A stretch of DNA of 32,000 bases from Candidatus Helarchaeota ASGARD archaeon Hel_GB_B (GTDB lineage Archaea > Asgardarchaeota > Lokiarchaeia > Helarchaeales > HEL-GB-B): the NCBI GenBank assembly GCA_005191425.1, contig SUPR01000020.1, positions 1-32,000 on the forward strand, read 5' to 3'. Made by a program: the position numbers and the translations under genes. The notes beneath the pieces are model-generated. The model had not been told where the DNA came from, did not search any database, and worked only from the letters and a program-made list of their open reading frames with translations. This document shows, piece by piece, positions 28,636 through 32,000 of this stretch (positions are counted from its first letter, which is position 1; each line of letters starts with the position of its first letter).

Positions 28636-29355
28636 GTGGAAAATATAATGCAAACTAAAAATTTGATCTCTGATAAAAAAGGAATAATATTCTGCGATTT
28701 AGAAGGTGTATTGACTGAATTAAAATCTACTTGGGAAAAATTAAATATTGAACTGGGGATGTCTGAAAAAGAAGACTACGACCTTTATAATAAATTCATC
28801 TCTGGATCATTAGATTATCCTGGTTGGGCTAACGAAATTTATTCAAAATGGAAAAAATATTCCGAATTTAAATTGACTAAAAAATTTTTTCAAGATTTTT
28901 TTGAGCAAAATCTTCTTATTAGAAAAGGTGCAATATCTTTTATTGAAAAATGCAAAAAAAACTTTATTTTTGTGGTAATTTCAGGGTCTCCTGATATGAA
29001 CTGTAGACTAGCAAAAGAAAAACTAAATTTTGATAGATATTATTCCTTAAATAAATTAATCTTTGATTCAAATAGAAAATTAATCGGAATTTTTGGCGAT
29101 AAAAATGGCTTCAATAAAGATAAAATTATGACTAAAATTATTGAAGAATATAACTTTAAATTAGACCAAAGTATAGCTATTGGAGATTCTGAAAATGATA
29201 TTACAATGCTAAATAAAGCAAAATTGGGAATTTTAATCGGCGAAAATTTAAAATTTCCCAGAATGTTAAATAAATTAAAAACAAATATTATTAAACTTAA
29301 GAAATTAGATTTTGAGAAACTTATCAAAATAATAAATAAAAAATTTGATATTTAG
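28636..29355 (+). CDS. HAD-IB phosphatase (SerB/ThrH-like); alternative start ATG 28648
   Basis: Motif I CDLEGVL (DxE variant), motif II ISGS, motif III NKDK, motif IV AIGDSENDITML. Confidence 0.88.
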   Translation: MENIMQTKNLISDKKGIIFCDLEGVLTELKSTWEKLNIELGMSEKEDYDLYNKFISGSLDYPGWANEIYSKWKKYSEFKLTKKFFQDFFEQNLLIRKGAISFIEKCKKNFIFVVISGSPDMNCRLAKEKLNFDRYYSLNKLIFDSNRKLIGIFGDKNGFNKDKIMTKIIEEYNFKLDQSIAIGDSENDITMLNKAKLGILIGENLKFPRMLNKLKTNIIKLKKLDFEKLIKIINKKFDI

Positions 29356-29366
29356 ATAATAAAACT

Positions 29367-29393
29367 TCAGTTAACGACTCTCCCGGAGTCCTT
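29367..29393 (+). repeat. Left arm of a perfect 27-bp inverted repeat, tcagttaacgactctcccggagtcctt
   Basis: Its exact reverse complement is at 31152-31178. A 23-bp match also occurs at 31221-31243 and a 15-bp match at 31086-31100. Confidence 0.95.
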
Positions 29394-29508
29394 GTGTAAT
29401 ATGCTAAACTTAAAAAAAATTTATATCTCTATGCGCCTATTAAGAGAACAAGCTAGACAGGTCATTGAACAATGCAAAAAACAAGGTATCGAAATTGTAA
29501 ATTGGTAG
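29368..29508 (+). other. Silent LRR C-terminal cassette with no start codon: QLTTLPESLCNMLNLKKIYISMRLLREQARQVIEQCKKQGIEIVNW*
   Basis: Not in the ORF track. It is colinear with the last LRR plus C-cap of the LRR gene on the opposite strand (KLKTLPESFYILNNLIYLNIENNPLDESTIERLEELRSRGVSVYY). Homology begins abruptly at 29367. Confidence 0.85.
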
Positions 29509-29735
29509 TTTATTCAACATGATTTCATTTTAATTTAAATTTGTCCTGTTCTTTTTCTATATTTTTTGTTAATATTTTCCTTTTTTACCTAATTTTATTT
29601 CATAATACAAATTCATAATTATATTACATTCCAGTCTCTTTTTCTATTCAAGACAAAGTAAATATTATTTAATTTTGAAGATTTAAGTACCTTTTATTTC
29701 GGGTTAAAAATTCAAATTGGAGCGTGGTAATTAAT

Positions 29736-30771
29736 ATGAATATAGAATTGGTCAATAGATTAATTTTAGATGCTAAAAATATTTGTAATGCAGAGAATTT
29801 AGCCCCGTCTACTATTAAAAAAACTCAATACATTGAGACGTATTTTTCTAGGTATCGAGGACTTGACGCCCTCGGCTATAATTGAATGGGTCGAGCAGTA
29901 TAGGTATGGTGCTCACAACACAGAGTTAAGTCCTCATGGAAAAAATAACTACTACACCGCAATCAAATGGTATTTAGCAAGGGCTACTCTAGTAAAATAT
30001 CCAAAAGAGGAATTGAAAAAAATCAAAAAAGTACCTGTCAGGCCAAAAGACCGCAGTGTGGACGATTTGGCACTAGAACACATCTTGCAATTTTCACCAA
30101 ATACTACTTTTGAGCTGGCATTTCGATTGATAAGAGAGCGCGGCATAAGGCCGCATGAATTACTTTCAATCAGGGTAAAAGATGTTTCCAAGTCAGAGGA
30201 AGGTTATGCGGTCGTGTCATTACAAGCAGAGAACCCCGAAGTCCCTTCAAGAAGGAACAAGACTGGCCCGAGGACTATAATATTTGTGCGAAATGCAGCT
30301 CGAATTCTAGAATTAGTCAGAGTGGTAGGTGCGGGTACAGGCCCTGAGGGCAGGCTCTTTCCATGGCGTCATGGAGTACTATCAGTTATATTCTGTAGAA
30401 TGAAAAAAATGCAGGAAGAAGTGGCGAGAAGAGAAGGCTGGAACAATTTATATAGGGGTAGGTTATATGATTTAAGACATGCTGCAATTACAGAGATGTA
30501 TGTCCATGGTTTCGTAGACCAAGAAGTGCGTGCCATGGTCGGCTGGGCTCCATCTTCTAAGATGCCGGATATTTATGTCCACATCGGGACAAAACACCTG
30601 CTAGATGCTTGTAAGAGAAATGAAACAAATTACATAAATATTGAATCAAACAAGAGAAATTTAGGACTCAAGGAAACCCATTTCGGAACATTTAATAAAA
30701 TAGTAAATAATTCAAAATTATACAGAAAATTTCCGGACAACGCCAATGAAATTAATTTCTATATAAAGTAG
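29736..30771 (+). mobile_element. Tyrosine recombinase/integrase (archaeal type) with a +1 frameshift at the A7 run 29817-29823; the intact downstream frame starts at TTG 29833
   Basis: Catalytic motifs G.RPHE (R), NKTG (K), YDLRH, and GW..SSKM..IY (W, Y). The upstream frame from ATG 29736 encodes …ENLAPSTIKK, the first helix of an integrase N-terminal SAM-like domain. GC is well above that of the flanks. Confidence 0.88.
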
Positions 30772-30970
30772 ATTACCTACAACTAATTTCCAAATGATGT
30801 AAACAAAATAAGAACAAAATTAGATTAAAATAAGGGATTAATAAAAGTAAGAGAGAAAAAAATAATTTTATTTAGTAAAAAGGCATGAATTGAAAAAATT
30901 ATAGTAATATAATTTTATTATAAGTAGCTGATACTCCAAATATCATTATTATTAAGTATTAACTACATTT

Positions 30971-31513
30971 TCAATAATAGACTGAAACACCTCTGGAACG
31001 TAGTTCTTCTAATCGTTCTATCGTACTTTCATCAAGCGGGTTATTTTCAATATTTAGGTAAATTAAATTATTTAATATATAAAATGACTCCGGGAGAGTC
31101 TTTAACTTATTGTCATTCAATTCAAGTTCTTGGAGTGATTTTAGGTCCCCAAAGGACTCCGGGAGAGTCGTTAACTGATTGTCCTGCAAATCAAGTTCTT
31201 GGAGTGATTTTAGAGTACCAAAGGACTCCGGGAGAGTCGTTAATTGATTCCAGCTTAAATCAAGTATTTGGAGGTTAGTTAGCTTGAGTATGGGCTCCGG
31301 GAGATTCTTTAATCTGCATTCATAAAGTCCCAGTCCCAATATTTTATTATCGTCCAATACCATCCCAAAAGTATCCCGTTCTATTTCATTTACTTTTGGG
31401 ATTGGCTTACCAATCATATTTTCCAATTCGGATATTATATATGAATTTATTTGTTTGGTCACATAATTTATTACATATTCATAATGCATATTCATAATGG
31501 GGATAATTTTCAA
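30971..31513 (-). CDS. Leucine-rich repeat protein, C-terminal part (Loki-type cap, about 4 LRRs, C-cap)
   Basis: ELENMIGKPIPKV…FGMVLDDNKILGLGL cap, then 23-aa repeats NQLTTLPESFG.LKSLQELDL. Confidence 0.92.
   Translation of the reverse strand: MKIIPIMNMHYEYVINYVTKQINSYIISELENMIGKPIPKVNEIERDTFGMVLDDNKILGLGLYECRLKNLPEPILKLTNLQILDLSWNQLTTLPESFGTLKSLQELDLQDNQLTTLPESFGDLKSLQELELNDNKLKTLPESFYILNNLIYLNIENNPLDESTIERLEELRSRGVSVYY
31086..31307 (-). repeat. Coding tandem repeats with a 69-bp period (LRR units)
   Basis: Core gactccgggagagtc (+ strand) at 31086, 31155 and 31224, with a degenerate copy at 31293. Spacing is exactly 69 bp. Confidence 0.95.
31152..31178 (-). repeat. Right arm of the perfect 27-bp inverted repeat
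   Basis: aaggactccgggagagtcgttaactga is the reverse complement of 29367-29393. Confidence 0.95.
31474..31499. repeat. Perfect 13-bp tandem duplication (catattcataatg x2) that frameshifts the LRR gene
   Basis: Copies at 31474-31486 and 31487-31499. Removing one copy fuses the upstream ORF (…ENYPHYEY) to VINYVTKQ… of the LRR ORF. Confidence 0.92.
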
Positions 31514-32000
31514 TAAGGTAATCTTTTAGATTTAAGAAGCCAGTAAAAGCTTCATTCAAATTACCGGCTAATTTATTCAGTATGATTGGGTTAATTTTAT
31601 TGAAAATATCTTTATGGTTGTAGATTAAATTAATAAAATTTTTTAAAGAGGTAGACTGGGTGTTAGTTAAGAATTTATTTTGTGTTAAAATATCAAGGTC
31701 ATTATTGATTTTGTTATAATCGAGTTGATTTTTTAAAAAATATTGAGACAGAAGGAATGGGAGGTAAAATTTTTCGATTTGATAAAATTTTTGGTTATTA
31801 ATAACGTTAATGTGGGCAATACCCGAATTTAATAGATTTATTTTAAATTCATTTGGTATCTGTTTATTTATCAAGTATTGGTCAAGAATTCCAAGAGTGT
31901 GATTATCTAAAATGAAAGTTGTGATTTGATTTAGGTATGTGACGTAATTATCATTAAATCCAATGCGGAAAAGTAAAGTATTTTGGGCTGGGATGTCATG
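31479..32000 (-). CDS. N-terminal portion (5'-truncated by the window end) of the frameshifted LRR gene; domain unknown
   Basis: The frame is open from 32000 (HDIPAQNTLLFRIGFND…) through the track ORF to TGA 31481-31479, which is created by the 13-bp duplication. Confidence 0.75.
   Translation of the reverse strand, partial: HDIPAQNTLLFRIGFNDNYVTYLNQITTFILDNHTLGILDQYLINKQIPNEFKINLLNSGIAHINVINNQKFYQIEKFYLPFLLSQYFLKNQLDYNKINNDLDILTQNKFLTNTQSTSLKNFINLIYNHKDIFNKINPIILNKLAGNLNEAFTGFLNLKDYLIENYPHYEYAL

Follow-up and report, generated by a model that had tools for sequence, protein, structure and literature searches.

A probable recombinase-driven inversion switch that varies the LRR sensor of an NLR-like protein in a Helarchaeota archaeon

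Results

Organisation of the locus

The window, that is, the whole stretch of DNA that was analysed, covers 32,000 nucleotides of the genome of Candidatus Helarchaeota archaeon Hel_GB_B (contig SUPR01000020.1, hereafter C95, forward strand). Towards its right-hand end, a silent LRR cassette placed behind a HAD-family hydrolase gene and the LRR array of an NLR-like gene face each other across a tyrosine recombinase gene. The features are as follows.

28636..29355, plus strand: HAD-family hydrolase gene (Pfam Hydrolase_3/HAD), the fixed left flank
29367..29393, plus strand: proposed left recombination arm, a partial LRR unit (QLTTLPES) with the proposed 21-bp site
29368..29508, plus strand: startless 3′ cassette, "cap A", silent; last LRR and C-terminal helix, ending ...IEIVNW-stop
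29736..29823, plus strand: N-terminal piece of the integrase (start of the core-binding domain, ...LAPSTIKK), frame 0, ending in an A7 tract
29824..30771, plus strand: integrase body, tyrosine recombinase catalytic domain (PF00589)
30971..31081, minus strand: "cap B", the currently expressed 3′ end (ORF 31513..30971; ...NNPLDES...GVSVYY-stop)
31082..31312, minus strand: array of four LRR motifs, 69 bp spacing, with a copy of the site in each (tandem family D1/D2 and unit listing)
31152..31178, minus strand: right arm, perfect partner of the left arm, within the third LRR motif
31474..31499, no strand: 13-bp tandem duplication, CATATTCATAATG twice (plus strand), which frameshifts the NLR-like gene
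31479..32000, minus strand: upstream part of the NLR-like gene, extending past the window to C95:33422

An inverted-repeat search of the window returned 29367-29393 and 31152-31178 as 27-nt arms, 100% complementary and with 1758 nt between them. The left arm also pairs with 31216-31247 (32 nt, 91%, with a perfect 23-mer inside) and with 31078-31107 (30 nt, 87%). At up to three mismatches the 27-mer has four matches in the window, against none in 100 shuffles, and in the whole 3.54-Mb genome it is confined to these four places on C95. The possibility that it is a common LRR paralogue sequence was therefore discarded, given its absence elsewhere in the genome even with three mismatches.

The TAG stop of the HAD gene is followed by four codons and then, in the same frame, by the silent cassette, whose LRR homology starts about 11-12 nt past that stop. 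Cap A has no ATG and terminates at 29506-29508. The segment running from cap A through the integrase to cap B is about 1.8 kb long, the cassette lying inverted, 1.7 kb downstream of the LRR units. When this segment is inverted in silico at the 27-bp arms, an in-frame product ending in cap A is obtained, while one LRR unit and the present C-terminus land behind the HAD gene. The perfect repeat, the startless cassette facing an LRR gene across a recombinase, the 23-bp match in the neighbouring LRR unit and the in-frame inversion product had all been described in a first-pass annotation of this DNA; all are confirmed from the sequence, the predicted product being exact in silico.

The NLR-like gene

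Upstream of its LRR array, the NLR-like gene is predicted to encode three parts: a hydrophobic/coiled-coil stretch at the N-terminus, then a STAND P-loop NTPase, then a helical spacer. Here it consists of a 647-aa ORF with a P-loop (Walker A GLEGSGKT), followed in a different frame by a 180-aa LRR ORF; the intact orthologue at locus L044 has 1088 aa. A central P-loop STAND NTPase is recognised by NPHP3_N on the 647-aa ORF (44.2 bits against a cut-off of 24.8, 3e-11), with sub-threshold matches of nSTAND_NTPase5 and NACHT over the same stretch. The C-terminal LRR sensor is recognised by LRR_4 on the window ORF (2e-19) and by LRR_8 on the intact L044 orthologue (6e-78). PADLOC gave marginal P-loop matches at best (E 2.6e-5 and worse), and the protein was not placed in a described defence family. 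Its domain architecture suggests an immune-type sensor role.

The 13-bp duplication that breaks the gene is private to this assembly; L044, L045 and L048 lack it and read through (...YPHYEYVINYV...). In G001 the NLR gene is split into three ORFs.

The tyrosine recombinase

The window ORF matches PF00589 with an E value of 4.4e-8 (33.5 bits against a cut-off of 27.1), and a profile of the integrase family matches XerA (4a8e, E 1.1e-6). NCBIfam models gave weak XerA-type matches, at 22-31 bits against a cut-off of 220. A PDB search with a single sequence gave no match. A family member was also compared by tblastn with 50,697 phage records, again without a match at E 1e-3 or better. In the window integrase we recognised the box I Arg (GIRPHE), the Lys of NKTG, the Arg of YDLRH and the Trp and Tyr of GW...YVH; His II is replaced by Tyr (YDLRH) in 20/20 aligned family members. 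The L022 and L044 integrases carry Met at the box I Arg position, the integrase is broken in L045 and L046, and a second copy in the same genome, on C2, is decayed. Integrase GC is 0.40-0.47, against 0.28 for the genome.

The window does not encode the recombinase, with its N-terminal core-binding domain, as one continuous ORF: the N-terminal 30-odd codons are out of frame with the body, and the reading frame must change by +1 at the A7 tract (29817-29823) to give a full-length recombinase. The frame break is located at the A-tract in this genome (G000), in G001 and in L011 (A9); in L024, L027 and L028 it falls at an A6T5-6 tract close by. It is present in all six AT-rich lineages and absent from the GC-rich L016 and L032. 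In full-length homologues the N-terminal stretch is contiguous with the body, and both pieces are conserved as protein. Because the break persists from lineage to lineage at an A-rich tract, it does not indicate decay. It is probably regulatory, and expression of the recombinase would have to involve slippage or a change in tract length; the assignment to the tyrosine recombinase family stands despite the break. The first-pass annotation had noted the frameshifts of both the recombinase and the LRR gene and had suggested that the system may be locked or decaying. This needs correction on two points: the first break is conserved, and the second is the private duplication.

Both orientations and several crossover registers within one species

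Comparison between assemblies of the same species (97-99% nucleotide identity) placed L022, L044, L047, L048 and L056 in the flipped state, and L045 and L046 in the state of the window, with L022/L044 and L045/L046 being possible same-strain pairs. The HAD flank (compared in L022, L044, L047 and L056) and the segment interior are 98.4-99.7% identical across orientations, although in these four the flank is on the strand opposite to the one it shares with the integrase in the window. The integrase body of the window is inverted relative to the NLR gene when compared with most relatives. In the flipped contigs, the NLR gene continues in frame into cap A, and cap B is silent behind the HAD gene. 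The cap A orthologue is the expressed C-terminus in L044, L048, L022 and L056, as well as in G001 and L011; cap B lies silent behind the HAD gene in L022, L044, L047 and L056, and is also silent in L011. The predicted junction (...LP.S-LCNMLNLKK...NW-stop) is present in L048 and L022, where cap A is joined at the register of the right arm. The opposite orientations occur in independent NCBI, ENA and JGI assemblies, and unique sequence flanks both junctions on both sides.

At least three crossover registers are found among near-identical strains, the HAD-side arm being joined to cap A (window), to cap B (L022, L044 and L056) or to three LRR modules plus cap B (L047). The number of expressed LRR motifs is 3 in L048, 4 in the window, 7 in L045 and 16 in L044. 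Conservative inversion alone cannot turn 4 repeats into 16, so that deletion or duplication is also needed. A derivation of one strain from another in a single step was sought, and none fits exactly; the strains are several inversions and unit-number changes apart.

We also mapped the 62-nt modules between successive spacers, matched at two mismatches or fewer. These modules recur in differing neighbourhoods, expressed in some strains and silent in others: module m22 is silent beside the HAD gene in L047 and expressed in L045 and L046, m13 is expressed in L044 and silent in L047, and m05 has cap B as its neighbour in the window, m26 in L045 and cap A in L047. Thus the events anticipated by the first-pass annotation are seen between strains: both orientations, the inverted junction, the transfer of the present C-terminus to the silent place behind the HAD gene, and differing crossover units accompanied by differing LRR numbers. 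Near-identical strains in opposite states show that the inversion has taken place in nature.

A proposed recombination site within the LRR unit

For the best-resolved breakpoints the interval narrows to about 10-15 nt, within which CTCCCGG lies. The longest stretch of identity, which homologous recombination would favour as well, is this very core; the breakpoint position alone is therefore no proof of site-specific exchange. We propose as recombination site the 21-bp sequence AACGACT-CTCCCGG-AGTCCTT, which encodes (T)TLPES; in it, an invariant, asymmetric spacer of 7 bp is flanked by two 7-bp arms that form an imperfect inverted repeat. The spacer is found at 29380-29386 in the left arm and at 31090-31096, 31159-31165, 31228-31234 and 31297-31303 in the array.

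Conservation of this stretch is visible at the nucleotide level. Third codon positions across AAT-NAG-TTA-ACG-ACT-CTC-CCR carry 1.2-1.8 bits of information, against 0.4-0.9 at other equally conserved Leu codons. In most other LRR paralogues of this 28% GC genome (C123, C127, C147 and C30) the LPxS codons are AT-rich; the TIR-LRR on C73 also uses GC-rich ones. The spacer is constant within a lineage and differs between lineages (CTCCCGG, CTCCCAG, CTCCCCG and CTACCCG), and the arm sequences vary from unit to unit. We propose that the TLPES motif is kept at GC-rich synonymous codons because it would also be a recombination site, the same nucleotides serving two codes.

Two other placements were considered and rejected. 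A crossover in AGTTAA, to the left of the core, was suggested by a C/A difference in the HAD-side arm; the unit table favours a strain polymorphism, and the well-bracketed breakpoints are at CTCCCGG. An 8+5+8 dyad matches the invariant spacer less well than 7+7+7.

Linkage between integrase and LRR genes

In all ten family loci for which both flanks are available, convergent LRR 3′ ends lie on either side of the integrase, and four more loci with one flank available are consistent with this arrangement, giving 14/14 informative loci. The first-pass annotation had named as checks the integrase-LRR linkage and the occurrence of the 27-mer in unlinked LRR paralogues; the linkage is retained in all informative loci, and the 27-mer was not found in unlinked paralogues. 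The family spans 27-82% integrase identity and 31-65% GC, its placeable loci are all Asgard, and its partner genes are of the NACHT-like-LRR, TIR-LRR or zinc-ribbon-LRR type. It is sporadic, being found in 6/400 Asgard species genomes. The eight other LRR loci of this genome, including that on C73, have no integrase and no inverted cassette, and their LRR matches are on one strand only. An ordinary integrated element was also considered and set aside: no tRNA gene was found in C95:26001-40518, and no direct repeats flank the integrase.

Discussion

Altogether, the locus is probably a recombinase-driven, shufflon-like multiple-inversion switch that alters the LRR sensor of an NLR-like protein. 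In the following scheme, which enzyme acts, where exactly it cleaves, how slippage works and how often switching occurs are inferred. Strands would be exchanged in the 7-bp spacer by the tyrosine recombinase whose gene separates the two sets of sites, and the segment from cap A through the integrase to cap B would thereby be inverted. The outgoing 3′ end would be left behind the HAD gene with no promoter, and the NLR-like gene would acquire the other end as an in-frame fusion. Any unit of the array could pair with any unit of the cassette, so that successive inversions in differing registers would carry complete LRR modules from the expressed to the silent side and back, changing both repeat number and cap. 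The +1 frame change at the A7 tract would probably keep switching rare.

It could be argued that the inversions are real but result from general homologous recombination (RadA) between inverted LRR repeats, the integrase being a passenger such as the remnant of a mobile element. The LRR units are indeed 67-86% identical over 69 bp with perfect tracts of 20-27 bp, and the first 39 nt of module m05 are also those of m14, a part-module similarity expected from unequal exchange; moreover, the integrase is out of frame, its C2 copy is decayed and its GC content looks foreign. However, a passenger would not keep its position between convergent LRR ends in every informative locus, and the N-terminal piece and the body of the integrase are both conserved as protein. 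The homology of the HAD-side arm amounts to about 20-27 bp only, each lineage keeps one spacer variant at a synonymous Pro position and the variant changes with the lineage of the integrase, and none of the eight integrase-free LRR loci of the genome has an inverted cassette. We therefore consider a passenger integrase unlikely.

Less probable again is that the integrase does catalyse the inversions but in a homology-dependent manner of low specificity, comparable to the pTN3 integrase of Thermococcus nautili, the LRR units being used merely as repeats. Inversion of DNA between identical segments by an archaeal tyrosine integrase has been described (Cossu et al. 2017, reviewed in PMC8371274), and the variation of the proposed arms between units would suit such an enzyme. 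Nonetheless, the pTN3 integrase required at least 104 bp of identity (PMC8371274), whereas perfect identity here covers 20-27 bp; in addition, synonymous-site conservation is focused on about 20 nt and not spread over the unit, and the best-resolved breakpoints cluster around one 7-bp spacer.

That nothing flips at all, the cassette being a decayed paralogue fragment or the orientations being assembly artefacts at the inverted repeat, is very improbable: this assembly shows a single orientation, the five G001-type contigs all have one orientation, giving no evidence of flipping within that species, and MAG contigs can be chimeric, but both orientations come from independent assemblies of three sources with unique sequence around both junctions, the 27-32 bp repeat is shorter than the k = 141 given in the ENA contig names (k141_...), and modules have been exchanged between silent and expressed positions.

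Among known systems, the one nearest to the switch that we propose is the invertible Int1 module by which haloarchaeal viruses vary their tail fibres, a precedent that the first-pass annotation did not mention. In the haloarchaeal myoviruses phiCh1, phiH1 and ChaoS9, a tyrosine recombinase lies between convergent repeat-containing genes or gene fragments, and inversion swaps the expressed 3′ part, the other copy being silent or partial (PMC6471424; Rossler et al. 2004 is listed for the phiCh1-type module in PMC8371274). Both systems are archaeal and have a central tyrosine recombinase between convergent repeat-containing ORFs. The Int1 module, however, is viral and acts on tail fibres, and hence on host range, while the Helarchaeota locus is chromosomal, the targets within the family are NLR-like and TIR-LRR proteins and the LRR unit itself is the proposed site. 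Homology with the module was not found, the phage collection having yielded no tblastn match and the targets being LRR proteins.

In the shufflon of R64 and other IncI1 plasmids, the tyrosine recombinase Rci acts on several sfx crossover sites with a 7-bp spacer and provides pilV with alternative C-terminal segments. The locus resembles a shufflon in that inversion alters the 3′ end of a gene in frame and that more than one pair of crossover sites is in use. The two differ in that the rci gene of R64 is not part of the DNA that inverts, whereas here the recombinase gene turns over together with its segment; moreover, the bacterial plasmid carries four separate segments, whereas here there is one, with registers nested within a tandem repeat. 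Komano 1999 is cited for the R64 shufflon in PMC10028968, and a review of archaeal tyrosine recombinases found no direct relationship to Rci (PMC8371274).

In the Gin/G segment of phage Mu, the Cin/C segment of P1 and type I restriction-modification hsdS loci, inversion exchanges the 3′ part of a gene that sets its specificity for a silent copy lying in inverted orientation. The programmed swap of a 3′ part is common to these systems and to the one proposed here; Gin and Cin differ in being serine invertases that use a single pair of sites. A survey of gene-altering inversions covers bacteria only and lists no LRR family (PMC9881135). The DGR-diversified STAND/NLR-like sensors of multicellular bacteria are comparable in that a dedicated element diversifies the DNA for the C-terminal sensor of prokaryotic STAND NTPases (PMC10907252). 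DGRs, however, act by mutagenic retrohoming into C-type-lectin folds, in contrast to the conservative inversion of LRR modules envisaged here.

The variable lymphocyte receptors (VLR) of lampreys and hagfish are LRR receptors whose repeat content and C-terminal cap are built from silent LRR cassettes by DNA rearrangement. Their assembly is gene-conversion-like, irreversible, deaminase-associated and somatic, and the resemblance is one of analogy only, with no homology implied. Tentatively, and with slightly less than even confidence, we suggest that Asgard archaea may possess a family of self-contained LRR shufflons in which the LRR unit doubles as the recombinase site and, within a population, a dedicated, slippage-gated recombinase gives NLR-like and TIR-LRR proteins new combinations of modules and caps; such a family would be a reversible prokaryotic counterpart of VLR-type diversification, serving the recognition of viruses or non-self. 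If true, cassette-based diversification of LRR receptors would occur in the closest archaeal relatives of eukaryotes. Asgard LRR proteins have been described without a known function, and the origin of NLR-type immunity is debated.

The literature searched contained no account of a chromosomal multiple-inversion system that alters genes in Asgard archaea, and no paper combining Helarchaeota, recombinase and inversion; archaeal chromosomal invertons have been called "minimally investigated" (PMC10028968). The LRR sensor domains of NLR-like and TIR-LRR proteins are new as a switch target. The compact recombinase and its 21-bp site pair might also serve as a tool. Finally, for the annotation of MAGs, what looks like a frameshifted integrase beside part of an LRR gene can be a functional switch, of which the assembly shows one state only.

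Organisation of the invertible locus

The contig carrying the locus (C95, of which the window is the first 32 kb) is 40.5 kb long and belongs to a genome of 3.54 Mb and 28% GC. Close relatives of the encoded proteins are assigned to Candidatus Helarchaeota in their source records. The first-pass annotation had proposed a recombinase-driven LRR shufflon at 29367-31243, and we confirmed its inverted repeat, whose two 27-nt arms are complementary over their full length. A tyrosine recombinase gene (PF00589), here called the integrase, sits between them.

29367-29393: left arm, 27 nt, perfectly complementary to the right arm
29368-29508, plus strand: cap A cassette, a startless frame opened by the left arm, with one partial LRR and a C-terminal cap
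31152-31178, minus strand: right arm, 27 nt, inside LRR unit 3 of an array of four (69 bp each)

Adjacent LRR units pair with the left arm as well, at 91% and 87%. Allowing up to three mismatches, we found four matches to the 27-mer in the window as against none in 100 shuffles, and none in the 3.54-Mb genome beyond these four places. The cap A frame starts 12 nt past the stop codon of a gene for a HAD hydrolase, while the minus-strand LRR gene ends in cap B, which is homologous to cap A yet different. This gene is far larger than the first-pass annotation could see, as its upstream part runs off the window to C95:33422; an upstream ORF of 647 aa has a P-loop (GLEGSGKT) and NPHP3_N, nSTAND and NACHT-like domain matches. 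The target of inversion is thus an NLR-like STAND NTPase carrying an LRR sensor (hereafter NLR), for which we suppose an immune role.

The GC content of the integrase region (29700-30800) is 40-47% and that of the LRR array 35-39%, against 28% for the genome, a composition which suggests a foreign origin of the module or an unusual constraint on its sequence. Neither a tRNA gene near the integrase (C95:26001-40518) nor direct repeats flanking it were found.

The cap A cassette is in frame with the HAD gene (29353-29508), with one TAG stop and four codons between them, and read-through of the TAG would add an LRR cap to the HAD hydrolase. The junction is the same in all strains, whichever cap is parked there. 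The shared frame may be a coincidence, with a chance of 1 in 3.

Inversion among related strains

The 90%-identity cluster of the integrase comprises ten proteins, and contigs were retrieved for the members on record (contig loci are numbered L). In L044, a 163-kb contig of GCA_054383815.1, gene order matches the window on both sides (OB-fold and 456-aa proteins on one; HAD, ArsA, URO-D and H+-PPase on the other) and the segment between the arms is inverted. Indeed, L044 5506-7245 corresponds to C95 29368-31107 at 98.7%, and both flanks align the opposite way (HAD side, 98.5%). The NLR of L044 is intact, with 1088 aa, 16 LRR motifs and a cap A end; cap B is silent behind HAD.

Orientation of the segment in further contigs
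L022 (ENA ERZ27248407): flipped
L056 (ERZ27248458): flipped
L047 (JGI 3300021468): flipped
L048 (GCA_054387195.1): flipped
L045 and L046: window's orientation, 7 LRR motifs, then cap B

The inverted junction that the first-pass annotation had predicted exists, strain polymorphisms apart, in L048 and L022, where cap A is joined at the same register as the perfect repeat of the window. The HAD-side cassette takes three forms: arm and cap A (window), arm and cap B (L022, L044, L056), or arm, three more LRR modules and cap B (L047). L022 and L044 are possibly the same strain, as are L045 and L046; with each pair counted once, about six distinct haplotypes remain, of which four are flipped and two have the orientation of the window. 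These comparisons show that inversion has occurred in nature, and repeatedly. We infer the coexistence of both states in one population and the rate of switching between them.

Reassortment of LRR modules

The arrays were cut at the invariant CTCCCGG and the resulting 62-nt pieces clustered with up to two mismatches. The same modules occur in differing neighbourhoods, expressed or silent depending on the strain. L047 holds two modules in silent positions that other strains express: m22, next to HAD (expressed in L045 and L046), and m13, next to cap B (expressed in L044). The neighbour that comes after m05 is cap B in the window, m26 in L045 and cap A in L047. Breakpoints with suitable polymorphisms nearby were bracketed to 10-15 nt including the CTCCCGG heptamer. 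The number of LRR units ranges from 3 to 16 across strains, to which deletions between direct-orientation sites within one array may contribute.

A candidate recombination site within the LRR unit

Across AAT-NAG-TTA-ACG-ACT-CTC-CCR, third codon positions carry 1.2-1.8 bits of information, as measured on 79 units from 8 loci. The remaining Leu codons of the LRR are just as conserved but reach only 0.4-0.9 bits at this position. The LPES codons are CTC CCG GAG TCC in the window, and CTT/TTA CCA GAT TCT and similar in most unlinked LRR paralogues of the genome (C123, C127, C147, C30); they are also GC-rich (CTCCCCGAGAGT) in the paralogue on contig C73. The heptamer spanning Leu-Pro is invariant across all units of a lineage and varies with the integrase lineage.

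Heptamers by integrase lineage
CTCCCGG: Helarchaeota clade, L024
CTCCCAG: L027 (mostly), L028
CTCCCCG: L016, L032
CTACCCG: L036

An imperfect dyad surrounds the heptamer (AACGACT / CTCCCGG / AGTCCTT), with 6 of 7 positions symmetric. Judged from sequence, dyad and heptamer together resemble a tyrosine-recombinase core site whose 7-bp overlap region is asymmetric. If any two units are to recombine, each would need an identical overlap, as seen.

Conservation of the layout in Asgard archaea

The same layout was found in a same-genus genome (G001; integrase 65% identical) and in metagenome contig L011 (82% to G001). L011 has an intact NLR of 1743 aa that ends in the expressed cap A, a co-directional integrase, and a silent copy consisting of one inverted unit and cap B, an arrangement that is the exact inverse of that in the window. 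Using the integrase-family alignment as query, we recovered further loci at 27-46% identity. At all ten loci with both flanks (the window's genome, G001, L011, L044, L016/L031, L024, L027, L028, L032 and L036), the integrase is preceded by LRR coding sequence on the plus strand and followed by LRR coding sequence on the minus strand, and thus stands between two LRR 3′ ends that converge on it; the shorter contigs L025, L029, L030 and L034 agree on their single flank. These family loci span 31% to 65% GC. L024 and L025 come from genomes that share the class of the window's genome, and the peptidase T neighbouring L031 is 84% identical to a Sigynarchaeota protein, so that every placeable locus is Asgard. 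The N-termini of the partner genes are a NACHT-like NTPase (Helarchaeota clade, L024, L031), a TIR domain (L027) or a zinc ribbon (L036). The family is sporadic, being present in 6 of 400 Asgard species genomes (E 1e-20 or better), and at the eight other LRR loci of the window's genome neither an integrase nor an opposite-strand LRR was found.

In the G001 species (L010, L017-L019; L010:3052-7134), the NLR is split into three ORFs (331+, 388 and 530 aa) with gaps of about 250 bp and 80 bp, identically in three independent contigs. Its silent cassette has 4 units and a cap-A-like end, with a frameshift at an A-run, and the integrase ORF continues through the reverse strand of this cassette. At L036:1801-4813, complete genes (zinc-ribbon N-terminus, LRRs, near-identical caps) flank a broken integrase on both sides; inversion there would swap 3′ parts between two expressed paralogues, not between a gene and a silent cassette.

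Reading frame and active site of the integrase

The first ~30 codons of the integrase (...LAPSTIKK) are in one frame and the body in the +1 frame; in full-length homologues from GC-rich genomes the same sequence is contiguous. The break recurs at an A7 tract in every same-species contig and in G001, and at A9 in L011, where stop codons in both frames restrict the shift to the A-tract itself. In L024, L027 and L028 it lies about 20 nt further along, at an A6T5-6 tract. Since the N-terminal piece and the body are both conserved at the protein level, the break itself is conserved and most likely serves to gate integrase expression; it could do so by transcriptional slippage, ribosomal frameshifting or variation in tract length.

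The body in the window has the active-site Arg, Lys, Arg, Trp and Tyr, and His II is replaced by Tyr throughout the family. The box I Arg is replaced by Met in L022 and L044, and the integrases of L045 and L046 have a premature stop; some lineages are therefore probably locked. The L045 locus (L045:2028-5781, ENA ERZ2433807), from a 95%-identical lineage, is degenerate, and its integrase stop makes it probably one of these; its NLR is truncated upstream and its flank differs, with MarR/HTH, AbiEii and a HEPN and nucleotidyltransferase pair (toxin-antitoxin or defence-type). In the window, the NLR is frameshifted by a tandem duplication of 13 bp (31474-31499), which L044, L045 and L048 lack.

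Mechanism of inversion

We consider it likely that the encoded recombinase catalyses site-specific inversion of the segment at sites borne by the LRR units, given the conserved linkage, the nucleotide-level conservation with a lineage-specific spacer, and the short homology at the HAD arm. Catalysis by the window's own recombinase, and the exact cleavage points, we likewise infer. General homologous recombination with the integrase as a passenger would fit the breakpoint positions too, as no identical tract is longer than the core; it leaves the retention of the integrase across the family unexplained, and we hold it to be improbable. An intermediate possibility, a homology-dependent mode as in the pTN3 integrase (PMC8371274), seems somewhat less probable still. 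The data contradict the view that nothing inverts or that assembly produced the opposite orientations, and we hold it to be very improbable, the repeat being far shorter than the k-mer sizes used and the contigs coming from independent NCBI, ENA and JGI assemblies.

Relation to known systems

The closest precedent comes from the haloarchaeal myoviruses phiCh1, phiH1 and ChaoS9. In their invertible tail-fibre module, Int1 is flanked by two tail-fibre genes that contain repeats and face opposite ways, and it changes the copy that is expressed (PMC6471424). The architecture, with its central tyrosine recombinase, is the same, whereas setting, target and recombinase sequence differ. A tblastn search with an integrase family member gave no match among 50,697 phage records. 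The R64 shufflon resembles the Helarchaeota locus in enzyme class, multiple sites and C-terminal selection, but its recombinase is located outside the segments. Surveys of gene-altering inversions cover bacteria only, with no LRR family among their entries (PMC9881135), archaeal chromosomal invertons have been described as barely studied (PMC10028968), and sensor diversification of STAND proteins is known via DGRs (PMC10907252). Relative to these, the distinguishing points of the Asgard multiple-inversion system are that the LRR repeat itself probably serves as its site and that it acts on NLR-like and TIR-LRR proteins.

Related fragments and paralogues

A second integrase copy at the start of contig C2 of the same genome (C2:35-711, L007) is 53-74% identical over residues 1-192. 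It is truncated, with many TAA, TAG and TGA stops and no LRR downstream, and is a decayed relic of another module or of an integrase-delivering element. On contig C108 (9975-10409), a 145-aa ORF joins the NLR-type N-terminal ~60 residues (glycine-rich, hydrophobic) to two LRR units and a cap-A-like end; it lacks the entire NTPase, has no integrase nearby, and seems to have arisen by deletion from a paralogous locus. The closest LRR paralogue (C73:3341-5032, 55% aa) has a TIR-like domain and ~13 LRR units, with neither integrase nor inverted cassette, and may be compared with the TIR-LRR partner gene of the L027 module. Finally, four contigs of Helarchaeota MAGs (L012-L015, 6001-6603) carry an integrase fragment of 200 aa that covers 45% of the query at 57% identity and has no LRR neighbours; in all four assemblies it adjoins a Roc/Ras-type GTPase gene (304-340 aa) and a PadR regulator.
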